DNA from: Trypanosoma brucei
Lineage: Eukaryota
Assembly (NCBI GenBank): GCA_000002445.1
Contig: CM000207.1
Coordinates: forward strand, 1,856,001 to 1,920,000
Reading direction: 5' to 3'
DNA: 64,000 nucleotides
Made by a program: the position numbers and the translations under genes. Below the pieces are notes generated by a model. It saw only the letters and a list, made by a program, of their open reading frames with translations, had not been told where the DNA came from and searched no databases. This document shows, one piece after another, positions 26,626 through 48,179 of this stretch (position 1 is the stretch's first letter; every line of letters starts with the position of its first letter).

Positions 26626-28110
26626 ATGTATGCTGATGAAGAGGAGAGTCGTTTCACTGGTAATATTCATACAATGCCTTCGATGACTGCAAACGGTAAG
26701 AATAAGGAATCCGCAACGGAAACGACAGATCTGCTCAGGAATGGCGGCTCCAAAGACGATGAAAATGTAGGTTATACATCAGTCTTCACGCAAACAATTG
26801 TCGTTATGCGACATGGGGAGAGGCGTGACGGGTCGGTGGATGCGGAACCGGAAGCGGATCCTCCTCTTACAGAACAGGGTTTAGCAAATGTGTCAAACGC
26901 AGCAACAGAGCTTCGTAACATTCTTGGAAGCAGAACAACACAGAATTTGCAGATTTTGACCTCACCGTTTTTAAGGACTATGCAGACAGCTGAGAGGCTG
27001 CAAAAGTGTGGAATAGGTGTAAGACGGCAGCGAATTGTAGACAACAACCTTTGTGAGGTGTACGGGCCATTGAGAATTAAAAGTAAAGAACCACCCCGCT
27101 TACCCGATGATGCTGTGGTGTCCGGACGTGGGTCGCTGCCTCTGTGGGGGGAGTCCCTCGAGTCAGCAACAAAACGGTTTGCTGATGCGTTACAAATGAA
27201 CTCACGCACATATTCGGAAGCGAATCTACTATTCGTAACACACGGCGATGCCTTAGGTGCTATCGTTTCTGCACTCTATCCAATGCGGATGGTTTATGAG
27301 GCGGAATACCTCTCTTTCATTGTTCTGCGGAAAAATAAGATAGAAAATAGCTTAGCAAGTGGATGCCGTGAGTTTGAACTTGTGGCTTCCAAAGGTGTGC
27401 AATGGATGGTTACAGGTCCGGAGGATTGCGACCCACAAGAGTCGGGTCATGCAGCTTCTGAGGATTCCGCTTTAGGCAAGAAGAGCGACCCTTTCGGGCA
27501 ACCGAGAGGTGATTCACCTCTTCACATTTCCCGCCGCCCCTTTGGAGCTGAAGACGGTGCGTCACCCATTAATTTACACAACCTCTCCAATGAGGAGGGC
27601 CGCGGGTGCTTACTGGATTTTTGGTTACTTTTTGTATTTCGCGTGTTGGCAGTGGCGTCGCAGGCACCTCTGCTTTTTTTCCTTGAGACAAACCTTAAGG
27701 ATGCTGGTACGTATATCACTGTTGTTTTGCTACTCGAGTTGATATTCTTTTATGCCTCCACCACTGACGAGAGATATTTTGGTTTTTATCAGGCGCTCGT
27801 AGCTGTTGAGAATTTTCCTGCAGTTTGTCGGCGAAGTTACAGGTCACTTTCCGGTGGTCACGGTGCGAGCACCCCTCGACCCAATGTACTGTTGGTACTT
27901 TGCGCCGCGAGCTTAAAGTGTTTTGCCATTTTTGCTATTGCTAGCGGTGCTGCCGCGTTTTTAAGCCTTTTCCCCGGTATCCACTTCACAATGTTTGATT
28001 CGTATAAGATGATATTCAACTCATTCTGGAGTGCGCTGCTGGTATTGTTTTTGCTCTTATTTAACTTTGTCCGTGTATACTGCTACGTGTCGGTAGCTTT
28101 GGCGGGTTAA
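26626..28110 (+). CDS. Histidine phosphatase superfamily (phosphoglycerate-mutase-like) protein with a C-terminal multi-span hydrophobic region
   Basis: The catalytic RHG motif in VVMRHGERRDG and the second catalytic histidine in LLFVTHGDALGAIVSAL are both present. The last 170 aa or so contain at least 4 hydrophobic segments (LLDFWLLFVFRVLAVA, ITVVLLLELIFFYAS, LLVLCAASLKCFAIFAIASGAAAFLSLF, ALLVLFLLLFNFV). Confidence 0.75.
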   Translation: MYADEEESRFTGNIHTMPSMTANGKNKESATETTDLLRNGGSKDDENVGYTSVFTQTIVVMRHGERRDGSVDAEPEADPPLTEQGLANVSNAATELRNILGSRTTQNLQILTSPFLRTMQTAERLQKCGIGVRRQRIVDNNLCEVYGPLRIKSKEPPRLPDDAVVSGRGSLPLWGESLESATKRFADALQMNSRTYSEANLLFVTHGDALGAIVSALYPMRMVYEAEYLSFIVLRKNKIENSLASGCREFELVASKGVQWMVTGPEDCDPQESGHAASEDSALGKKSDPFGQPRGDSPLHISRRPFGAEDGASPINLHNLSNEEGRGCLLDFWLLFVFRVLAVASQAPLLFFLETNLKDAGTYITVVLLLELIFFYASTTDERYFGFYQALVAVENFPAVCRRSYRSLSGGHGASTPRPNVLLVLCAASLKCFAIFAIASGAAAFLSLFPGIHFTMFDSYKMIFNSFWSALLVLFLLLFNFVRVYCYVSVALAG

Positions 28111-29420: not shown

Positions 29421-30837
29421 AATTTATGAGGATAATTATGGGTTTTGTGGAAGTGAAAACGCAAAATAAACGGTAGGAGGAGTTGGCGAACGAATTAGAA
29501 GTGATGTCCATAGAGATGTTGTTAATAAAATTATGATGTAGGTGAACATTACCATTGAAAGGTGCATGCTGGGGCCGAGGATTTTCTGTTGTGTTTTCTC
29601 CCTTGCATTACAAACTCTGGGTTGGCGATGGTGATGAATTGGACTCCGTGTGTGTGTGAGAGAGAGAGAGATATCGTTGAAAGTACAAACTAATGACGAT
29701 AATCCCTTTTATTGTTAGTTAGTTATTTTTTGGTTTCGTACGCAATTGAATTATTGGAGGTCTGCCCTCACTTTTGTTTGTGGGTTCCTTCAAGCGGTAT
29801 CATAGAAGGGGAAGAAGCACATACGTATTTTTGGTTGTCTATTAGCCACATATTGGAGCAATGTTCACAAACAAGTGAGAGCAAGCAAATACGTACAAAA
29901 GGGAAAGAAAACAGTGCATAAAATAATTGCCGGGCTTAAACCCTATATATATATGTGCGTGTGTGTGTGTGTGTGTATTTTTTCATATTTATTCCGGACT
30001 TTCTCTTCCCTACCGTAAACTGTTCAGATGCAATCGTTTAGTGGATGCTAGTTCAGGGCCAACCACCGATTATTGGTTTACATTTCATTTGAAATGTTGT
30101 TCCCGTGACACAATCCATATCGTGACGCTGCATCTTGTTTGTGCAAAGCAAAATATGGTTTTCGAACCTTTCCCTCACTAAAACGTCTTGTTTTCAAGTT
30201 TAATTGCTGTTTGCCTCGTATTTTTCCTCTTTGTGTTTCGTTGTGCTCTTTAGCGTTACTTTCCGACTGTGTCACCTCACTCTTAAAGTTTCGGCTGTTC
30301 ACTCCCTTCCCCAACATGACGCACAACAAACCTTTCCCCTTTATATCATGAAATGATGAGTTGCGCGTACGGAACTGCAAAATGTTGCACTTAGTTATTT
30401 AATCTCTTCGGTATATGTTTTCTACTTTTGAATAGACGAAGCTTAAGTAATAGAGGAAGCATATAACACTAAAGACGGGTTGGTGGTTGTTAAACATTCA
30501 TTTAACCCCCTTCAGGCTACCCCGGGCCCTATCGGGAGAATTATATATATATATTGTTCTGTGTGGTGGTACATTGTGACGAGTAAAAAAAAGCTTCTGT
30601 TGACGGCAAGAGGGGTGAAACGTTTATATTTGTGGATAGGACGCGGGTGGGAGCGAAAGAGTGACCAACTATATAGGTATTTATAGTTGAGTGTTAACGT
30701 CGATTTTATTTTTTCTTAATCTTTATTTTTAAACAGGTTTTTTGTACATTTGTTGTTGGCTTGAGAACAAGCCCTCCACCGTTCTTTGACCACTTTTCGA
30801 AAGCCAGTCACTGGTGAGGTTGGGGCAATCTCAGGTG

Positions 30838-33800
30838 ATGTGTGCCTTAAGGGATATCGCGTCAACTTCGCCTTTAGGTGATGCCATTCGTGACCGCATT
30901 AAGGGAGGTATAATTATTACTACTGGTGAGGGAGCTGGTTCTTCTCCAGCCTCCACAATAAACTCGAGCCCACTTGGGATGGGTAGAGGAAGTGATGATA
31001 GTGCACACAGCCCCCGCTCTGGGAATCCGCTCGGGTGGGAGGGGCTGGAGGGACAGTCCTTGCCGTTCTTTGGCACGAGGTCACGGGATGGGACGGATAC
31101 CTGTATTCACTCACATTCATATGACCAACCACATGTCTGCCCAATATCTATGGAGAGAAACCTGAGGCCAAGCAGTAGCGTTTCGTGGTTATGTGATGAA
31201 ACCTTGTCGGAGGGTTTAGCCGGCTCACCGAAATCATCATTCTCTCCACTGGTTGCTTCTCCACGGTTCGTCAACCTTCGCGATTCTGTGGTTGCGGCCT
31301 CACCATTGGACTATTCTGAAGAGCACTCACCGCGTTTCGCCAGTGGCCCTTCTGAACGAGGCGGTTCATTTTGTTCACAGTTTTCAGACAACATTGCATT
31401 AGGAAAACAGTTGCAAGGTGCCCTCGCAAACCCAACTCTGTGGTGCTCCAAGGAGGAATCACCTCGTAGCACTGCGGCGTCGCCGCACTCTCCGCGTGTT
31501 GGCTGTTCGGGAAACTGTCTGGAGAGTCCTGATCTCAAAGTTGCCTCCGCTTCTCAACCAGGTCCCGCAGCCCCCTCGCATGATCCATGGAAGAAAGCAC
31601 TACGTTGTCTTACAATTACTGCTACATTGCAAATGCTTTTATTCGTAGTGGTATTTGCGACTCATTACTTTGTGACTACATGGGTCTTAGTACAGATTCA
31701 GGCAAAATGCACAAACAGCAGTTTAGCACCAGCGCGTTGCCACACATTTATTGGGGACCGCCGGCCTCACCGTCTTGGATTCATCACCACGGAAAACTTC
31801 ACTGTTGTTGGCACATTGTCAGGTTTCGTAGCCACAGCTCTTGGAGTGATGATACTGCGGTATCTACTGTGGCATACGCTGCGTTCCTTTTCGATGGGGA
31901 CAGTAAGTTTGATTTGCCGTGTGGCGCCTTTACTACAACAAGACAAGGATGCAATTGTTTACCAACTGCAGGTGGCGACCAGTTTTTCAAGGAAAGAAGC
32001 TTCAGATGCTGGCAACAAGGAAAGGAGTGAAACCTCTCAGCCGAATGATAAGAAAACCGGTTACGCACCCAATCGTTTATGTGACCATAAAGGAGGTTCC
32101 CCCATTTGTGTGTTGGATTCGTCTTGTAACATTCCAAAAGTTAATACCAGCTATGAAAATTTCCACGAATTGGCTGGACCTGATTTTGCCGGTGGTCGCG
32201 TCCCCCTGCGTGCGGTGCGGTCACACGAGATAATCCCTGTCTCGTCTTCCCCTCTTTTAAAAAATTTGGATCGCTCGAATAAATTCTCGACACCGACTGC
32301 AGTCAGGCACAACTACTGGTCAGTAAGGGAGGTTAGGGCTTCAGATTCCACTTCCTTGAGCACTCAGCAGTCTGATGCATGTATCGATGCGTTTGCACTA
32401 CCGCGCCCCCGTGAGCTCAAAGTTTGCTGCGACGTGGAAGGTCATCCTCTGAAGACGAACTTGCACAAGCACGCAGATCCTGATAAGTTCGATTCCGCTA
32501 CAACGAACTCCTCTCAGGAGGTAACGGGTCGGAAAGAGGATACACAAGAGAGCTCATCATGCAAAACCAAGAGCGACTTCAGCACAAGTAATAGTGACCA
32601 GTTGTTGTTGGAAACATTCGGTAGCAAAAATGCGATGCTTAGCAATAGTGGTTTCTTGGCACAGCAAGTTACATTTCTTGTATGCCGATTGTTTTTGCCC
32701 GCATTGGACCTGGAAATGGAAGGCGTCGTAACGACGAAGAGGTTAAGAGCAGTGCAAGCAATGTCACAGCAATTCACGGAAGTTGTGCTGCGTGTGGCGA
32801 GGGAAGAGTTTGGTGTTCCATTTGATATTCGGTTGGACTCAGTTGTGGTGACGTTTCACACACCGTCAGGACCGAATTCTGTCAATTTGGTGAGACCACG
32901 TGATTGTGCCTTTCGTCTCGTGTCGGAACTTCAGAAGTTGGAGTCACAATGGGCCCGCACGTCCTCGTTGCCATTTGTTTGGGGAATAGCCATGCACCTT
33001 AGCCAACTATTGGTTGGCGTCATCCGCACGCCGTCTGGTCGCACATCATCCCTGTACGGTGAAGAAGTGAGGTTGGCATACCGCGTGACCGAACTTTGTC
33101 GCATTCTCGACTGTCCATTACTAATGTTGCAACCATGCTATGATGTTTTCCGCGTCTGTGTGACCGCAGTTCCCGTTGACGTGATACACCGAAGGACGTG
33201 TGGTGGAGATGTTCGGATATACTTATACGACCCCAAAGCACCAAAAGAAAGGGAATGTGTGGGAAGTTCCCGTGAGCAGTATGCCCCCCTTATGGCGGCC
33301 TTTGGGCTAATGTGTGAGAAAAGGTTCAGCCAAGCATCCGAGCAGTTGGAGAAAGTCTTGGAGTTAGATCACAACGCCCCGCGGCTACACAGGCTTTGCA
33401 AGTACCTTGCGCAGGAGCATGAAGGGGAGAAGATGAACTCTTCTCTAAGTGACATTACCAGGTACGTGCGGGAGGGCCCACAGTGGTGTGCAGTGGATAG
33501 AGAGGCTAAGAAATTTATCCGAAAGAAGATTGAAAAGGCAGGAATGAGTATTGACATGAATGCCACTTCGCTTTCCGTATCGCAATACCCATTTAACGAT
33601 GTGGTAGAACCGGGTTGTGCGCAGGGAATCAGTGAAGAGTATCGTTTGTTGCACCGGGTGGCAAATAGTTGCGCTATGATGGACTTGTCACGATTTGGGC
33701 AGTGTGAGTGCCACGTTTCCCCGCAGTATTATGCAGCACCAGGAAGTTTTCAACCGAATGAAATACAGTCGGAATGCGCATTGGTGACACTCCGTCAGAA

Positions 33801-34875
33801 TACATTGATGAATAGCAGCATTACTCGTGATGTTTGCATCGTTACGCACCAGCGTAGCTCCTCCGCCTGCGGTGTGATGCCGGAGTGTAACTACAAGAGT
33901 GACCGAACCATTGCCGTCGTTGCGCCTCCCCATGGCGAAAATACAATTCAAAACGGTGACTGTTATAACAAAGCAGAAAGACTTGAGTTTGACATTTACG
34001 GGCCAGTGGGCGCAGGTTCTTTCGGCAGGGTTTATAGAGGACTCCATCCGGATGGCAATATTGTCGCTATAAAGGAATATCCGGTGCCAAGCATGGATGA
34101 AAACAATCCGGAAATTCAATCCACATTATCAGAGATTCGGATGTTATCGGCTTCCCACCACAAAAACATTGTTCGGTACGTCGATAGATGCTTTCAAAAC
34201 GGTTGTTTGTATATCATCACTGAGTTTGTGTCTGGAGGGTCTCTCGCAGCACTCGTTGAAACATTCCACGGCCTCCCCTGTGACATTATCAGGCGCTATA
34301 CCGGTGACATACTCCGTGGGCTTCAATATCTTCACGACCGCCAAATCGTACACCGGGACATATCTCCGAACAATGTGCTCGTTAGCATTGATGGAGTGTG
34401 TAAACTGAGTGATTTTGGTGGTGCCGTGGAGTGCGCGATGCAACCACCAACTTCTGAAGATAACGTTACACTCACCAGTGATGAAAAGAGCCCCACGAGG
34501 AAGCGTACGATGGTGCTCACCACTGAAAGTGATTACTGCTCTACCGGTTCCACGACGCTGAAAACGTGCTTCGGCACACCTGTGTGTATGTCACCAGAGG
34601 CTTGCATGGGTGTAGTGGATCCAAGGAACGATATTTGGGGACTGGGAATTACACTTTGCTTTTGTGTTGCCTGCAGTTACCCGTGGTCACAGGAGGACAC
34701 AGCCGATGTGCGTTCCTTCATTAGTAAACTACGCCGTGGGTGTATTAGCCCGGAGCCGCCTTTCGACTTAATGGACGTTCACTTTGCTGATTTTGTTCGG
34801 CAGTGCCTAAAGCGAGATGCGAAGGATCGCCCATCAGCATCTGAGCTTTTGTTCCATGACTTTATGGTAAACTAA
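30838..34875 (+). CDS. Large (about 1345 aa) protein kinase with a C-terminal Ser/Thr kinase domain, a hydrophobic transmembrane-like segment near residue 265, and a central region with weak nucleotidyl-cyclase-like similarity
   Basis: Kinase subdomains are present: the Gly loop GAGSFGRV, the beta-3 Lys in VAIKEY, the catalytic loop HRDISPNN (Lys replaced by Ser), DFG, and an APE-like SPE. The activation segment is about 55 aa long. The ORF-track start at 30814 is a GTG, and the first ATG is at 30838. A TM-like stretch reads LTITATLQMLLFVVVFATHYFV. The N-terminal region is Ser/Pro-rich. Confidence 0.85.
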   Translation: MCALRDIASTSPLGDAIRDRIKGGIIITTGEGAGSSPASTINSSPLGMGRGSDDSAHSPRSGNPLGWEGLEGQSLPFFGTRSRDGTDTCIHSHSYDQPHVCPISMERNLRPSSSVSWLCDETLSEGLAGSPKSSFSPLVASPRFVNLRDSVVAASPLDYSEEHSPRFASGPSERGGSFCSQFSDNIALGKQLQGALANPTLWCSKEESPRSTAASPHSPRVGCSGNCLESPDLKVASASQPGPAAPSHDPWKKALRCLTITATLQMLLFVVVFATHYFVTTWVLVQIQAKCTNSSLAPARCHTFIGDRRPHRLGFITTENFTVVGTLSGFVATALGVMILRYLLWHTLRSFSMGTVSLICRVAPLLQQDKDAIVYQLQVATSFSRKEASDAGNKERSETSQPNDKKTGYAPNRLCDHKGGSPICVLDSSCNIPKVNTSYENFHELAGPDFAGGRVPLRAVRSHEIIPVSSSPLLKNLDRSNKFSTPTAVRHNYWSVREVRASDSTSLSTQQSDACIDAFALPRPRELKVCCDVEGHPLKTNLHKHADPDKFDSATTNSSQEVTGRKEDTQESSSCKTKSDFSTSNSDQLLLETFGSKNAMLSNSGFLAQQVTFLVCRLFLPALDLEMEGVVTTKRLRAVQAMSQQFTEVVLRVAREEFGVPFDIRLDSVVVTFHTPSGPNSVNLVRPRDCAFRLVSELQKLESQWARTSSLPFVWGIAMHLSQLLVGVIRTPSGRTSSLYGEEVRLAYRVTELCRILDCPLLMLQPCYDVFRVCVTAVPVDVIHRRTCGGDVRIYLYDPKAPKERECVGSSREQYAPLMAAFGLMCEKRFSQASEQLEKVLELDHNAPRLHRLCKYLAQEHEGEKMNSSLSDITRYVREGPQWCAVDREAKKFIRKKIEKAGMSIDMNATSLSVSQYPFNDVVEPGCAQGISEEYRLLHRVANSCAMMDLSRFGQCECHVSPQYYAAPGSFQPNEIQSECALVTLRQNTLMNSSITRDVCIVTHQRSSSACGVMPECNYKSDRTIAVVAPPHGENTIQNGDCYNKAERLEFDIYGPVGAGSFGRVYRGLHPDGNIVAIKEYPVPSMDENNPEIQSTLSEIRMLSASHHKNIVRYVDRCFQNGCLYIITEFVSGGSLAALVETFHGLPCDIIRRYTGDILRGLQYLHDRQIVHRDISPNNVLVSIDGVCKLSDFGGAVECAMQPPTSEDNVTLTSDEKSPTRKRTMVLTTESDYCSTGSTTLKTCFGTPVCMSPEACMGVVDPRNDIWGLGITLCFCVACSYPWSQEDTADVRSFISKLRRGCISPEPPFDLMDVHFADFVRQCLKRDAKDRPSASELLFHDFMVN

Positions 34876-36920: not shown

Positions 36921-37442
36921 ATGCGACAAACTGGAAGTTTTCAGCCGTTCTTCTTGCGTGGAAAAGTAGTGCATGGCAAAGGTCGGGGAGGTTCACAACT
37001 TGGTTTTCCAACCGCTAACATTGGTCTCGATAAAGATGTTATGGAGTGCTTGCAACCGTACAAAAACCTTGTGGTTTATGGATGGGGAACTGTTTCACAG
37101 GTCCCCGGAAAAGAGCGAGAGAGTTTCGGTCCTTATCCATTTGCCGCCTCTATAGGATTCAACATGCAATTTGATGAAAAAACACTTACCGTTGAGCCAT
37201 ATTTTTTGCATGAATTTGGTTGGGACTTCTACGGTGCCGTTGTGAAGATAATTGTGCTTGGGGAAATCCGAAGCATGGGTTCTTTTCATTCACTGCAGGC
37301 GCTAGTAGATACTATAAAAAGTGATGTCCAATTTACACGGGACATGTTGCAAAAACCGCAACTTCAAGAGTTCTCGCGTCACTCATTGTTTGAGTCACCC
37401 TCTTCCACCATTCCGTACTTCGAGGATCTACCCGATGAGTGA
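36921..37442 (+). CDS. Riboflavin kinase (flavokinase; FMN biosynthesis)
   Basis: Carries the flavokinase signature GKGRGGSQLGFPTANI (GxGRG...PTAN). Conserved downstream elements are also present: YGWGTV, EPYFLHEFGWDFYG and the C-terminal helix FHSLQALVDTIKSDV. Length is 173 aa. Confidence 0.8.
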   Translation: MRQTGSFQPFFLRGKVVHGKGRGGSQLGFPTANIGLDKDVMECLQPYKNLVVYGWGTVSQVPGKERESFGPYPFAASIGFNMQFDEKTLTVEPYFLHEFGWDFYGAVVKIIVLGEIRSMGSFHSLQALVDTIKSDVQFTRDMLQKPQLQEFSRHSLFESPSSTIPYFEDLPDE

Positions 37443-41174: not shown

Positions 41175-42203
41175 ATGTTAAATATTTGCCAAAACTTGTC
41201 TTCCGTTGCAAAACCGGATCTAATTGTCGTGAGTGGTCACAAATGCAACATTCAGCGAGGGCCTCAAACTTCTATTGGCACACCAACTATCACAAAAAGG
41301 GTTACAGCTTGGGAGGCGCTCATATACCTGGAGATGTTGCTGGCAGAAGATGAGGCATTTGCGATTTTGGCAACGTTTGTTCCACCGCTCGTAGCGCTGT
41401 TGCCTCCAGAGAATTTTGCTTCGGATAATTGGGTTTATGTCCATGATCCGGCGTCGCGACCTTTACTAAAGTCAATTTTCGCGCAACTAAAACAGATGAG
41501 CGCTGACACACATGGATACAATGAAGTAATGGACACAACTCGTTGGGAAATAATTTTAGTTGATGTAACCGCGACATTTCATAAACCTTGTGTGCTTGAT
41601 ATCAAACTTGGATATGTGCGGCATTCACCGCACACATTACCCGACAAGGTGGAGCGCATACATAAGAGGCAGCTTCGACGAAGCCAACCCATACGATTTT
41701 GCGGTGCACATCACCAATTTTGTCGCCAAAATAACGACATCGGGGAGTGCTTTGAATTAGAAGAGTTCACAAAAGACATGGGTTATGCACTGGAAACAGA
41801 AGAGAGCCACCGCCGTGCACTTCGCTCCTTTTTTACCACAGCATCCCTAATGACCACATCGAATACCAATGAGACGACCATAATTGACGATCGGCATGCA
41901 ATGGCGCGCTCGCGGTGCTGCCGTCAGCGCGTTCAAAAGTTAGTTGATTTCTTAAAGGGTCATTTGGGTCAAATGCTATTGGAGAGAATAGCATTTGTGT
42001 CCGCGTCGTTATTGATTGTGTACGATGCGACGGGGTGTTGCGGCAGAAATGTTACCGTAAGTGAAGGGATCAATAGTATGAATGATATGGTGAACGTTTA
42101 TTTGATTGACTTCTCTCGCTCAGGCGACAGGCGGTTACACTTTCCTGAGGAAGTGGTTGGGTTTGTTCAAGGTTTGGAAAAAATTATTTTTCTTCTTTCA
42201 TGA
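41175..42203 (+). CDS. IPMK: Inositol polyphosphate kinase family enzyme (inositol polyphosphate multikinase-like)
   Basis: Carries the IPK signature PCVLDIKLG (P-x-x-x-D-x-K-x-G), the SSLL-type motif in SASLLIVYD, and IDFS (the IDF-A/S catalytic motif) near the C-terminus. Length is 342 aa. Confidence 0.8.
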   Translation: MLNICQNLSSVAKPDLIVVSGHKCNIQRGPQTSIGTPTITKRVTAWEALIYLEMLLAEDEAFAILATFVPPLVALLPPENFASDNWVYVHDPASRPLLKSIFAQLKQMSADTHGYNEVMDTTRWEIILVDVTATFHKPCVLDIKLGYVRHSPHTLPDKVERIHKRQLRRSQPIRFCGAHHQFCRQNNDIGECFELEEFTKDMGYALETEESHRRALRSFFTTASLMTTSNTNETTIIDDRHAMARSRCCRQRVQKLVDFLKGHLGQMLLERIAFVSASLLIVYDATGCCGRNVTVSEGINSMNDMVNVYLIDFSRSGDRRLHFPEEVVGFVQGLEKIIFLLS

Positions 42204-43606: not shown

Positions 43607-44339
43607 AATGGAAGGGACAGCAGTTAAAGTACGGTTGCTGGCGAGCGCACGTTTGTCCGTACGTATGCACGGTTTGTGTCCTTTAGGTCGCTGAAAATCG
43701 CTTGTGATACTCAGAGCGATAGGTCTTCTAATCGAAGTTTGTTTGTGGCAGGCACTTCGTTACTTTTTCCCACTTTTTTTTAAAAAAATTGTTCTTGAAG
43801 GCGCTGACACGTGGTTGTGCCCTTCAGTTTTTCTTTCGACGGATCATCGTTGAGATAAATGCAATAACAAGGGATCATTTGAGAAGAAATGAGATAGAAA
43901 GAGTGTGTGTATGTGTGTGCGATGGTAGAGAGAATAGGGGAAGGTGAAAGCTTTTAAACCTGATTGGTGCTTTCTTTCTTTCTTTCCTATCCCTTAATCC
44001 TCTTGGTGCGGTTGATGTATGTACGAAGGGTTGGGGATGTTGACCCCTCGAGAAACGTGTTCACACTGTGTGTAAAGAAAATATGTGATAACTTAGAGAT
44101 ATCTATGCTGCGTAGTTTTATTTTTCCGTGGTTTTGCCGTTCTCTTTCACAACCGCGTTCTGTAAAGCTCGCTTTCCTTTCGTTCTACACCTTGCCTCTC
44201 TTGGATTTGACACAATTTATAATTAAAGCAATAGTTCTGATTAGAAAGCGTTCGGAGAAACGCAGTGAGCAGGCGGAGCCTGTCTTCACCCGTCTCACGA
44301 ATTTTAGTTTTTGCTTTTTTTTCTTTGGCTTATCTGACA

Positions 44340-47300
44340 ATGCAAGACATGCGTATGTTTAATGTATGTGCTCTGCTCAGCCACAATGACAGCAGTGCCG
44401 ATATCATTCGAGGGGGGTTTGGAGGTTTTCCGAATGGAATGTGTTTAGAAGATTTTCGTACTTTTGTACTTCAGAACGTATTATCGAAGCCGGAGGGTGA
44501 AGAGGGTACCGAAACGCGTCGTTGTACAACATCTAAAACAACCATTATGAATTTACTTACGGATGTGGATGCAGAAACACTGAGAATGAGAAGTGGTGGT
44601 GCCAGCGGTCTTCAACCGCGGTTTTCAAAGCAACCCTTGTTCTCTTTTTCACGAAGGAAATCTGGCAAACCGCGCAGCTTTGGTTCGGTTCTCATGGAGG
44701 CGGATGAAAATGATAAACTTTGTCATTTGGACTACCTTTTTAGCCTTGTAGATTCCGATCGTGATGGATTTATCACATGGGATGATATGTTACAGCGTGC
44801 TGTAGAGGAGGCGACACAAGACATTACATCGGCACTTCAGAGTATGCACTCCTACTCCTTCTTCCGTTCCTCCACAAGATCGAGGGCCATAAAGTCGATT
44901 CACGGACTTCCGCAGCATAAATCCCTTTTTGCTGTCGTCACAGGTTCTCATCCTCTAACTCTTATGAAGAGGTCAGACTTCAGTATAGCCAAGCAGTTCA
45001 CACCGAGGGAAGTTGGAGGTGCAGCACCGACCTCAGTGGAGTACCTTCCGGGACCTGATATTTTACTAAGTTATTCTAGGGACGACGCGACAATTCGTGG
45101 TTGGTGGAACTTTTTGTCCGTTAGCCGCATGGGTGTCATGAATCCCTTACATCTGGATGGGATTGTGCGAAGATTGAGATTAGGGAACAGTTCTCTTCCT
45201 TACTCTTTCTTCACAGCCGGGAGCAATGGCAACATTCAGCACTGGAAGGTACCCAAACAACGATACGTGTGTGATATGGTTAGCGAGCACGTATACAAGG
45301 GCATTCACTCGTGTGAAAGCGGTGGCATTATTGACTTTGTAATGACTGATGAATGGTTCTTCTCCGTGGGGTTTGATCATCGCGTGGTCTCGACGAATGT
45401 AGAAACAGGTCGTTCCGTTGTTATGGGTCAGATGACGGAGACCATTCGGTTTGTAGAGTATAATAAACCTTTTAATTGTTTTCCGTGTGTCACATATGGA
45501 AACGAACTCTTACTGTGGGATGTTCGTTCCTCGTCCGAGTCTCGTAGTACACCACTTGTCGACGACTCATTTAAGGTTCACAGAGGGAGTGTAATTGGTT
45601 TAACCAATGCACCGGGACTGCCGCAGGTGATCACAGCAGACAACACAGGGAGAATAAAAATATGGGATCTTCGGCTTCTTCGTTGCGTGCAGACGCTGTT
45701 TGCTGACGGGTCTTCCGAGAGTGACTTTAGTTTGGACATGGTGGGCAAAGAGTTAAACGGGTCAAAAAATGGTACTTCCCACAACTCTAAGAACTTCAAA
45801 ACTGGAAAAAGTCGATGTATTTCCTCCTTTTGTTACTTTGCCAACACACATGAAATTGTGTCTAGCTCGGCTGACGCATTAGTTTCGCTGCGATATGATC
45901 GCCGTAGCGACTGTACTATTGCCGATGCCGACGTCTTATATTACGCATGCTTTGATGAGCAGCATGAACTAATTGTATTACAGGGTCCTACCCGTACAAG
46001 TGTGTGGGACGCTAAAGGCGGTTACCGGCGCTCGCTTTTTGATCGAGTCACCCAATCGGATATTCCTATTGGCAGGTATGAAGTTGTTGCCATGTGCGTC
46101 GACCCGATACGAAATCGTATATTTTATGCCTTAGCTGAAGGTGTCATTGAGGTTCGTTCATCAAAGGATTATGTACTGATCGACACCTACTCGATGCACA
46201 ATTCAGAAATAAGGGAAATGTGTTTTAGTTACAAACACAACATGTTAGTTAGCATGGCTGAGAATGGGGTGATTTCTGTTCGCAACGAAAAGCGATCCGT
46301 GCCATGGACGATGAGTATTTCCGTCTCCAAAAGAAAGTTGCGATCCCTCATTTTGAGCGACGAACTTGGTTTTATTTGTTGTTGTGACGACCATTACATT
46401 TATTTTATCGATTACAGGCAAACGTCCCTCGTCCCTTTCCCCATAGAAGCGCCGTTCCCCGTACACGTGATGGCTATATTCGGTACATTACCAGTACTGG
46501 CACTCGGAAGTAAGGAGGGACAGATTGTTCTGTGGTCACTTCCACCCGCAGAAGTGAGTTACACAATGTTAGCTTCCATCAACTTGGAAGGTATTGCAAA
46601 GTCTCAGGGCCAAAAACCAATCGCACGGCCTAAAAAGGATAATGAGGACAGTTCATCACTTGGAAATGAAACTACATGGCTGCCACTTGGACTTGGTGAA
46701 ACCAAGGAATACAAATATCAAGAGGAATTATTACCATCCGTTGCCGCGGCATCCGTCAAGGCAAGTAGTGAGTCCTGCGACAGTTCCCTGTGCAGTTTAC
46801 TGCGTGAAATTTGCCGCAAAGAATCCAGTAGCTTGATTACAGCCATTGCATTTGATGACGTTTTGCACAACCTTTTCGTCGCAGATGGAAGCGGTAAAAT
46901 ATTTGTTTACTCTCTTTGTCCCTTGGTGCAGGACTATGGACTACTGCCTTGCTCATTTGAGAAGCGCACAAGGTACAGGCTTCGGGATGTGCCGAGAGAT
47001 TCAAGGCTATCGAATACTCCTCCACTAGCGCACACCATCACCGCCCATCACTCAGCCGCAAACTACATGACGTGGTTTCCTGGTCTGCGGGTCATTATAT
47101 CATGTGGAGGTGACTCCAATGTAAAACTTTTTGACGTGGACGGAAGGGAGGTTGGGCAATTGCTCATGACACGCCTTCCCCCGAGGCCCGCGTTTGACGC
47201 GGTGAATAATGATCGTGAAAGTAGACCAGAAACAGGTACCGTTGTGGTCAAGGAAGCTCCATATTGCCTTCCTGCTGATACGGGCACCACAAAGAAATGT

Positions 47301-48179
47301 GTAAGTTGTGCTCTGATGGAGGAACGAAGGCAGGAGGTTACCGCGTTTATCACGGAGGAGGATAACTCGGCGGCTCTCGGCGTCGGTCCACTCCCGTCCA
47401 TCAACAGGAAGCAACACAACAGATCGGCCTTGCGCAGTGCTCGCAAAGCACCTTGTGTAACCCTCGGGGCATTCATGAAAGCAGAAGAAGAGAAAATCCC
47501 GGAGGTCGTTGAAGGGGATGTAAAACCACAGCCGGTTCCCGCCGCGACTCCGGAAATCACTTGGTTAGCAGCACTAAAGAGGAAGAAATGGCACCATGCA
47601 GCGGAGAGGTCTCGTGGCACGTACATCCACAACAGTGATATGATGACTCGCCCTGCAAAAATAGTTGGATCTTTGCCCGACTCGAAGGTTGAGTCCGGTG
47701 AGGACCTGCCAAACAACTTGAGGCGTAACGCAAATCTCCTCGAAAACGTATTGAAGGGAATAGACCCGTCTGTTGTTGGATTAACTAGGACGAAAAAACC
47801 AGGTACAGCGGTGACACCGCCACCAGGAGGTAAAACTATATCAGAATCAGGGGATGTCGGATTGAAAAAACTTACTCTTGCTGGTATTCAACTGAGTCCA
47901 CGTCCTTTCAACAGTGCACTTTCGCCCGGAACAAAAACTCCGCGGTCCGGGTATCGAGGCAAAGTACAACCGATAAAAATGTCTGCTCGCGAGAAGTGGG
48001 AGTTTTGCACCGGTGAACCCTTCGACGCACAACACAACGTGGGAGAAGACGATGTAAGTAGGCAGTTAGATGAACTTGTTCACATGTATGAAAAGGAAAT
48101 GCATCGTTGCTTCCGCGGTGGGAAGAGACATGAGAAAATTAAAAAGAACAAAGCCTCATTCCTTCAAGACAGTTCATAG
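44340..48179 (+). CDS. Hypothetical protein of about 1279 aa with an N-terminal EF-hand and multiple WD40-like repeats
   Basis: The ORF runs from 44265, but the first 25 codons translate a polypyrimidine leader. The ATG at 44340 (MQDMRMF) follows the polypyrimidine-AG signal. The EF-hand loop is LVDSDRDGFITWDDML. WD-like repeats end in IKIWDLR and VKLFDVD. The C-terminal 350 aa are low-complexity and basic. Confidence 0.75.
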   Translation: MQDMRMFNVCALLSHNDSSADIIRGGFGGFPNGMCLEDFRTFVLQNVLSKPEGEEGTETRRCTTSKTTIMNLLTDVDAETLRMRSGGASGLQPRFSKQPLFSFSRRKSGKPRSFGSVLMEADENDKLCHLDYLFSLVDSDRDGFITWDDMLQRAVEEATQDITSALQSMHSYSFFRSSTRSRAIKSIHGLPQHKSLFAVVTGSHPLTLMKRSDFSIAKQFTPREVGGAAPTSVEYLPGPDILLSYSRDDATIRGWWNFLSVSRMGVMNPLHLDGIVRRLRLGNSSLPYSFFTAGSNGNIQHWKVPKQRYVCDMVSEHVYKGIHSCESGGIIDFVMTDEWFFSVGFDHRVVSTNVETGRSVVMGQMTETIRFVEYNKPFNCFPCVTYGNELLLWDVRSSSESRSTPLVDDSFKVHRGSVIGLTNAPGLPQVITADNTGRIKIWDLRLLRCVQTLFADGSSESDFSLDMVGKELNGSKNGTSHNSKNFKTGKSRCISSFCYFANTHEIVSSSADALVSLRYDRRSDCTIADADVLYYACFDEQHELIVLQGPTRTSVWDAKGGYRRSLFDRVTQSDIPIGRYEVVAMCVDPIRNRIFYALAEGVIEVRSSKDYVLIDTYSMHNSEIREMCFSYKHNMLVSMAENGVISVRNEKRSVPWTMSISVSKRKLRSLILSDELGFICCCDDHYIYFIDYRQTSLVPFPIEAPFPVHVMAIFGTLPVLALGSKEGQIVLWSLPPAEVSYTMLASINLEGIAKSQGQKPIARPKKDNEDSSSLGNETTWLPLGLGETKEYKYQEELLPSVAAASVKASSESCDSSLCSLLREICRKESSSLITAIAFDDVLHNLFVADGSGKIFVYSLCPLVQDYGLLPCSFEKRTRYRLRDVPRDSRLSNTPPLAHTITAHHSAANYMTWFPGLRVIISCGGDSNVKLFDVDGREVGQLLMTRLPPRPAFDAVNNDRESRPETGTVVVKEAPYCLPADTGTTKKCVSCALMEERRQEVTAFITEEDNSAALGVGPLPSINRKQHNRSALRSARKAPCVTLGAFMKAEEEKIPEVVEGDVKPQPVPAATPEITWLAALKRKKWHHAAERSRGTYIHNSDMMTRPAKIVGSLPDSKVESGEDLPNNLRRNANLLENVLKGIDPSVVGLTRTKKPGTAVTPPPGGKTISESGDVGLKKLTLAGIQLSPRPFNSALSPGTKTPRSGYRGKVQPIKMSAREKWEFCTGEPFDAQHNVGEDDVSRQLDELVHMYEKEMHRCFRGGKRHEKIKKNKASFLQDSS

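Follow-up and report, generated by a model that had tools for sequence, protein, structure and literature searches.

Tb927.9.12400 of Trypanosoma brucei: a transmembrane STE-group kinase with a catalytically degenerate class III cyclase homology domain

Introduction

Transmembrane protein kinases with a cyclase-like region have been described in Trypanosoma brucei, and one of them, Tb927.9.12400, is encoded in the 64,000-nucleotide stretch of DNA analysed here (assembly GCA_000002445.1, contig CM000207.1, positions 1,856,001 to 1,920,000 of the forward strand; hereafter the window, whose own numbering is used throughout). Jensen, Vaney, Flaspohler, Coppens & Parsons (PLoS One 2021, PMC8519429) reported nucleotide cyclase-like domains in three T. 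brucei kinases, Tb927.3.5650, Tb927.9.12400, and Tb927.10.1910. By description, Tb927.3.5650 and Tb927.10.1910, as well as RDK1 (Tb927.11.14070), are likewise transmembrane kinases in which the cyclase-like region precedes a C-terminal kinase. RDK1 differs in having an additional bacterial-type sensor ectodomain, and its similarity to cyclases came from HHpred. Tb927.9.12400 was given in the 2021 study as a 148 kDa protein with transmembrane domains at residues 263-285 and 323-345, and its S2 table lists a "nucleotide cyclase domain" for it together with the C-terminal kinase. An orthologue was named in T. cruzi (TcCLB.510741.70) and none in L. major, and the tagged protein co-localised with the endoplasmic reticulum (ER) marker BiP. 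The cyclase-like domain and the architecture are thus already in database annotation and in Jensen et al. 2021, and the suggestion of an earlier note, made from the DNA alone, that this architecture was undescribed in kinetoplastids fails because the protein is listed there. The main text of that paper is silent on residues for metal binding or catalysis in the cyclase-like domain (searched for 'metal' and 'catalytic residues').

Animal receptor guanylyl cyclases (RGCs) are alike in being membrane proteins that combine a kinase fold with a class III cyclase fold, one of the two being dead. In Tb927.9.12400, however, the order is reversed, with the cyclase-like domain before the kinase; the dead partner would be the cyclase and not the kinase; an ectodomain is missing; and two membrane helices are predicted instead of one. 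The protein therefore falls outside the RGC group, whose members have an ectodomain, a single transmembrane segment, and a kinase-homology domain before an active cyclase, and Parsons et al. 2005 indeed found no RGC-group proteins in trypanosomatids. The receptor-type adenylate cyclases of trypanosomes (GRESAG4; 1fx4) are enzymatically active, combine a large ectodomain with a single transmembrane helix, and have no kinase. Their distance from the Tb927.9.12400 domain is no smaller than that of bacterial cyclases, and they were missing among the matches (E ≤ 1) of the family profile in the Protein Data Bank (PDB) described below.

Homology and fold of the cyclase-like domain

The gene and the domain under study are the following.

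30838 to 34875, + strand: coding sequence of the 1345-residue protein kinase Tb927.9.12400, stop codon counted (open reading frame list, protein match, primer match)
32635 to 33252, + strand: class III nucleotidyl-cyclase homology domain, catalytically degenerate, residues ~600-805 (homology and fold searches)

The open reading frame (ORF) at 30838-34875 is Tb927.9.12400, because both published cloning primers (PMC8519429 supplement) match it exactly, with no mismatches at 30838-30866 (+) and 34841-34872 (-). The primer label P4035M is consistent with 1345 codons, and the 1345-residue product is an exact match to XP_827485.1 / UniProt Q38DG5 of T. brucei TREU927. The transmembrane positions listed for Tb927.9.12400 in PMC8519429 agree with our hydropathy scan. 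The product is one of the three transmembrane kinases with a nucleotide cyclase-like domain named in that study.

Residues 571-1040 were used as the phmmer query in an exhaustive search of 1.84 billion (1.84e9) representative proteins, and 23 proteins were retrieved at E ≤ 1e-3, including the T. brucei protein itself. Five were orthologues from T. grayi, T. conorhini, T. cruzi marinkellei, T. vivax, and T. melophagium, with 43-58% identity, and seven were remoter kinases, one of them from Angomonas deanei. Among the ten weakest matches, nine were Pfam-confirmed Guanylate_cyc proteins (E of 4e-5 to 1e-3), several of which carry CHASE2 sensor domains, and the aligned stretch was their cyclase domain. 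These matches establish statistically supported homology to bona fide members of PF00211.

A family alignment of 13 sequences (A1, residues 595-900) was then used as a profile against the PDB. All 15 sequences found at E ≤ 1 were class III cyclases, photoactivated cyclases among them, and the best matches were Cya2 (2w01, E = 1.4e-6), CyaB (3r5g, E = 1.4e-4), and CyaC (1wc0, E = 5e-4). We also compared A1 by hhalign with an alignment of nine bacterial cyclase domains (A2). The local comparison gave a probability of 99.5% (E = 3.6e-22, score 150, 162 columns) and the global mode 99.8% over residues 600-804, while thirty column-shuffled cyclase profiles reached a maximum score of 20 and a maximum probability of 1%. 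The agreement of phmmer, the PDB profile, and the shuffle-controlled hhalign comparison indicates that the similarity is far beyond chance.

Less exhaustive searches returned little. The family profile gave a single match in a word-indexed search, a PF00211 protein. The middle region alone retrieved nothing from the word-indexed protein search, the T. brucei protein itself also being missed, and the whole protein retrieved nothing beyond the T. brucei cluster and kinase domains of unrelated proteins, with no orthologues. The orthologues were recovered solely by the exhaustive HMMER search. Single-sequence phmmer against the PDB gave one weak match, again the class III cyclase 2w01 (E = 0.52, suggestive only), aligned as the earlier note had proposed.

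An AlphaFold2 model built from A1 (mean predicted local distance difference test score, pLDDT, 74.4; predicted template modelling score, pTM, 0.74) had the strand and helix order of class III cyclases, with three to four additional helices at the end. In a Foldseek search of the PDB with this model, the top 50 matches were class III cyclases without exception (E down to 7.9e-10), with target-normalised template modelling scores of 0.64-0.77 for single-domain chains. The model is thus consistent with the class III fold, a β-α-β-β-α-β core plus C-terminal strands. Readings of the region as some other fold were rejected: GGDEF matches aligned ~50 fewer residues with lower scores, no PAS or GAF match was found, and a disordered domain was likewise discarded.

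Residues ~600-805 are a genuine, highly diverged homologue of class III adenylyl/guanylyl cyclases with the fold intact. The observation in the earlier note that residues ~600-800 follow such a domain was borne out by phmmer, the PDB profile, hhalign, and the fold search. The interval given there, 32400-33250, corresponds to residues 521-805; it stands from about residue 600 (nt 32635), whereas residues 521-599 are low-complexity and unconserved. Three checks had also been proposed. The profile check had a mixed outcome, with no match to Pfam PF00211 but class III cyclases found by the A1 profile and hhalign. Structure prediction led to class III cyclases through AlphaFold2 and Foldseek, and the orthologue alignment showed a conserved fold region in which three catalytic positions are replaced in all 13 members.

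Catalytic residues

We placed the canonical active-site residues from the hhalign and HMMER alignments and then read them across the 13-member family alignment. Three sites were located.

32686 to 32688, + strand: R617, a non-acidic residue at or beside the first metal-binding Asp position (β1 FxDIxGFT; global hhalign)
32824 to 32838, + strand: D663-D667 (DIRLD), with D663 in place of the substrate Lys and D667 as the kept second metal Asp (phmmer, hmmsearch, hhalign)
33049 to 33084, + strand: S738-R749 (SLYGEEVRLAYR), with S738 at the specificity position, R745 in place of the transition-state Asn, and R749 as the kept transition-state Arg (hhalign)

In the global hhalign alignment, VC--RLFLP lay opposite FSDIRGFT, so that R617 or the adjoining two-residue gap falls at the first metal Asp; this column holds R, Q, or K in 13 of 13 members. 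LDSVVVTF was paired with GDxxMxxF by phmmer, hmmsearch, and hhalign alike. The substrate Lys column (D663) contains D, N, or other residues and neither K nor E in any of the 13, and the second metal Asp (D667) is kept in 11. Furthermore, hhalign set SSLYGEEVRLAYRV opposite YTVIGDNVNLASRI. Here the Thr/Asp specificity column (S738) is variable (S/W/F/Y/V/M/T), and the transition-state Asn column (R745) shows R/K/Q/T/E, with N in none of the 13. Seven sequences, the six from Trypanosoma and P0032, have the transition-state Arg (R749), and in the others the position is A, H, E, or Q.

Three of the six canonical active-site residues, namely the first metal Asp, the substrate Lys, and the transition-state Asn, are therefore replaced in every relative. 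The bacterial cyclases Cya2 (2w01), CyaB (3r5g), and CyaC (1wc1) and the CHASE2-linked cyclases, as opposed to Tb927.9.12400, have all six, and D18, D136, and R143 of alignment A2 are invariant. The pair of metal-binding aspartates is incomplete (the first is gone and D667 is kept), neither the substrate-specifying Lys with Asp/Thr nor the Glu with Cys of guanylyl cyclases is found, and the transition-state Asn and Arg do not occur together. Since neither a complete homodimeric site nor the requirements of a C1-like or C2-like half-site are satisfied, the domain is a predicted pseudo-cyclase, which from its sequence would no longer be able to make cyclic nucleotides. Homology and fold place it in the class III cyclase superfamily, yet by its catalytic residues it does not qualify. 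The replacements are older than the split between Trypanosoma and Angomonas.

The earlier note had matched four peptides by eye to the cyclase motifs VxxLFxDI, KTxGDxxM, GIHTGxxxxGViG, and YDxxGDTVNxAsRxES, namely VTFLVCRL (residues 611-618, 32668-32691), VVVTFHTP (669-676, 32842-32865), GIAMHLSQLLVGVI (716-729, 32983-33024), and SLYGEEVRLAYRVTE (738-752, 33049-33093). Three of these equivalences held. The second (KTxGD) was off by about six residues, the counterpart being DIRLDSVV at residues 663-670 and not VVVTFHTP. Its statement that the metal-binding and transition-state residues were mostly lost applies to the first metal Asp and the Asn, but D667 (second metal Asp) and R749 (transition-state Arg) survive. 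Its pseudo-cyclase reading agrees with the replacement of the first metal Asp, the Lys, and the Asn in 13 of 13 relatives.

Domain layout and conservation

The remaining parts of the protein are as follows.

30838 to 31623, + strand: N-terminal region, residues 1-262, Ser/Pro/Gly-rich and weakly conserved (composition, orthologue alignment)
31624 to 31692, + strand: predicted transmembrane helix 1, residues 263-285 (hydropathy; TMHMM 263-285 in PMC8519429 S2 Table)
31804 to 31872, + strand: predicted transmembrane helix 2, residues 323-345 (hydropathy; TMHMM 323-345 in PMC8519429)
31873 to 32634, + strand: low-complexity linker, residues 346-599, weakly conserved (orthologue alignment, composition)
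33253 to 33522, + strand: conserved helical extension, residues 806-895, TPR-like hairpins and then a YxRxGPxW motif (family alignment, model)
33988 to 34872, + strand: C-terminal STE-group-like protein kinase domain, residues 1051-1345 (Pfam, PDB relatives, motifs)

Residues 1-262 contain 62-70% disorder-promoting residues per 50-residue window and are 9-18% identical to the Trypanosoma orthologues; neither a Pfam match nor a recognisable ligand-binding ectodomain was found in them. Kyte-Doolittle 19-residue windows exceeded 1.6 between residues 254 and 287 and between residues 321 and 345. The linker that follows showed 9-24% orthologue identity and 60-78% disorder-promoting residues. The cyclase fold and the kinase lie on the same side of the predicted two-helix membrane hairpin and are connected by a variable linker. 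This arrangement supports the proposal of a membrane-anchored cyclase-like domain fused to a kinase, the membrane part being a predicted hairpin. The likeness to receptor guanylyl cyclases drawn in the earlier note is loose, with a hairpin that has no recognisable ectodomain and a tagged protein that is found in the ER.

When the whole protein was aligned with four Trypanosoma orthologues, conservation was confined to residues 601-880 and the kinase domain. Identity was 45-70% per 40-residue window in residues 601-880, compared with 9-24% in residues 1-600, the membrane hairpin included. The cyclase-like domain and its ~90-residue extension are thus conserved across Trypanosoma about as strongly as the kinase.

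The extension was modelled as helices with pLDDT of 80-94. Across 12-13 family members, A833, Y876, R878, and W883 are invariant and F830, R849, L850, and L853 nearly so, and no relative lacks the YxRxGPxW motif behind its cyclase-like fold. Searches with the extension returned a weak, sub-threshold match to Pfam TPR_11 (E = 0.26), nothing significant with a profile of residues 801-900 against the PDB (best E = 0.29), and nothing significant with Foldseek of the extension's own model (best E = 1.3, with weak likenesses to Fis1, TPR, and 14-3-3 proteins).

The kinase domain

The C-terminal domain matched Pfam Pkinase (E = 3.7e-46, residues 1055-1343), and its nearest solved relatives were MST/STE20, MAP3K2, PAK, and ASK1. 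The domain carries a G-loop (GAGSFG) as well as VAIK, HRD, and DFG, and for the T. cruzi orthologue the annotation reads STE/STE11. The domain is thus an STE-group (STE11-type) protein kinase that deviates in having the catalytic-loop Lys replaced by Ser, and judged from these motifs it is apparently competent.

The replacement lies in HRDISPNN at residues 1172-1179 (34351-34374), where Ser occupies the Lys position of HRDxKxxN. Ser or Asn stands at that position in 10 of the 13 kinases with a cyclase-like domain that were checked, these being the ones that keep HRD (HRDI[S/N]xNN); T. vivax has HRNISPNN. HRDI[S/N]xNN looks like a family signature. A Ser/Thr-rich insert follows DFG in the activation-segment region (residues ~1201-1240, 34438-34557). 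It is the sole weakly conserved stretch of the kinase, with 21% identity as opposed to 57-91% in the flanking windows.

All three T. vivax orthologue records (P0024, P0044, and P0045) are without the kinase motifs in the region equivalent to residues 1058-1192 (34009-34413). The G-loop reads IEASPSS, VAIK is changed to VAIA, HRD to HRN, and DFG to DFC. The cyclase-like motifs VCRLFLP, MDSVIVTF, and AHRVTELC are kept. The prediction for T. vivax is therefore a protein that is pseudokinase and pseudo-cyclase at once. That the cyclase-like motifs were kept while those of the kinase were lost suggests that the module matters apart from phosphotransfer.

Genomic context

The long + strand ORF spans 30814-34875, and an in-frame GTG at 30814, eight codons before the ATG, would give a product of 1353 residues. 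This start has been adopted by some automatic gene calls in public assemblies (P0018, P0019). The ATG at 30838 is the curated start and also the one cloned experimentally. Neighbouring + strand ORFs encode a histidine-phosphatase-superfamily protein (26626-28110), a riboflavin kinase (36921-37442), an inositol polyphosphate kinase (41175-42203), and a large WD40 protein (44265-48179). Of the 23 ORFs in the window that reach 200 residues or more, 19 are on the + strand, and the other four, on the - strand, all overlap longer + strand ORFs. This strand bias is as expected for a single trypanosomatid polycistronic unit.

Discussion

Taken together, the data are probably best explained by a diverged class III homologue that is catalytically dead and has been selected as a dimerising or ligand-sensing regulator of the kinase. 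Conservation of the module, while the first 600 residues are not conserved, argues that it is under selection, presumably for a non-catalytic role. Class III cyclase domains work only as head-to-tail dimers, with the ligand pockets at the interface, and by analogy with this general behaviour the domain may serve as a regulatory dimer. The two-helix hairpin would leave both termini cytosolic, the pseudo-cyclase could bring two copies of the protein together on the cytosolic side of the ER or another endomembrane, and the dimerised module might control the C-terminal STE11-type kinase, possibly upon binding a nucleotide-like ligand. Tb927.9.12400 may accordingly be compared, by analogy, to an inverted receptor guanylyl cyclase with a dead cyclase and a live kinase, without being a member of that group.

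Several observations weigh against this interpretation. Pfam PF00211 (gathering score 21.9 bits) was unmatched at E ≤ 10 both in the whole protein and in residues 551-900, and no match was found in the 12 relatives at E ≤ 0.1. As the Pfam model is blind to all 13 family members, membership depends on remote-homology methods. Alignment A2 was taken from the query's own phmmer matches, so the hhalign comparison was favoured, whereas the PDB profile and fold searches are free of that bias. The AlphaFold2 model is of medium confidence and was built on a shallow alignment of 13 sequences. Many dimeric membrane cyclases have a coiled coil or signalling helix upstream of the cyclase domain, and no conserved element of this kind was seen upstream of the domain in the orthologue alignment. 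Finally, ribosome profiling detected next to no production of Tb927.9.12400 in cultured bloodstream forms and only a little in procyclic ones (PMC8519429). For the Pfam misses, the explanation is the limited sensitivity of the model, and they are not evidence against homology.

The alternatives differ widely in weight. A chance resemblance, with the region adopting another fold such as PAS, GAF, or GGDEF or being disordered, is contradicted by four independent lines (sequence, profile, shuffle-controlled profile-profile comparison, and structure), and we give it practically no weight. It is somewhat less far-fetched, albeit still very improbable, that the domain is an active cyclase using a non-canonical site or forming a half-site in a heterodimer with another cyclase domain. 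D667 and R749 are indeed kept in Trypanosoma, and mammalian and soluble cyclases are, as textbooks have it, asymmetric pairs in which each half is without some residues. However, a C1-type half requires both metal aspartates, the first of which is gone in 13 of 13 members, and a C2-type half requires the Lys (or Glu), Asn, and Arg, of which the Lys and Asn are gone in all 13.

A more serious alternative, which we still consider rather unlikely, is that the pocket is chiefly a ligand sensor that binds a nucleotide or phosphorylated small molecule without turnover and switches the kinase allosterically, the basic residues R617 and R745 standing in for metal ions. It overlaps with the dimer model and does not exclude it. 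Ligand sensing is plausible in view of basic residues where metal ligands and transition-state residues used to stand, and of 6yii, a solved class III adenylyl cyclase-like ATP-binding protein from Pseudomonas aeruginosa; a literature search for the paper behind this PDB entry returned nothing relevant. The pocket residues, however, are diverse outside the Trypanosoma clade (T or E at 745 and A, H, E, or Q at 749), which argues against a single conserved ligand, and they were placed by alignment, not by coordinates.

The T. cruzi orthologue TcCLB.510741.70 showed raised mRNA in long-starved epimastigotes (PMC10117895) and a 15-fold increase upon overexpression of UBP1, which drives an infective-form expression pattern (PMC10141520). 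These rises, together with a protein that is barely made in T. brucei, point to a stage-restricted role. A more specific and doubtful proposal is that the domain is a metal-independent sensor of a nucleotide or phosphometabolite, with Arg/Lys at 617 and 745 replacing the metals, and that its dimerisation upon ligand binding would switch an STE11 kinase at an endomembrane in insect-stage or starvation-induced differentiation; the T. vivax protein would then be a catalytically silent scaffold.

The value of the domain as a discovery is small, since it had already been annotated and published. What goes beyond Jensen et al. 2021 is a residue-level, family-wide pseudo-enzyme case, the conserved helical extension, and the predicted T. 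vivax pseudokinase.

To our knowledge, trypanosomes have neither classical receptor kinases nor G-protein-coupled receptors. Those few membrane kinases that carry additional signalling domains are therefore candidate environmental sensors. In Tb927.9.12400, a cyclase-like domain that is real, apparently dead, and selected would direct experiments to dimerisation or ligand binding rather than to cyclic AMP synthesis.

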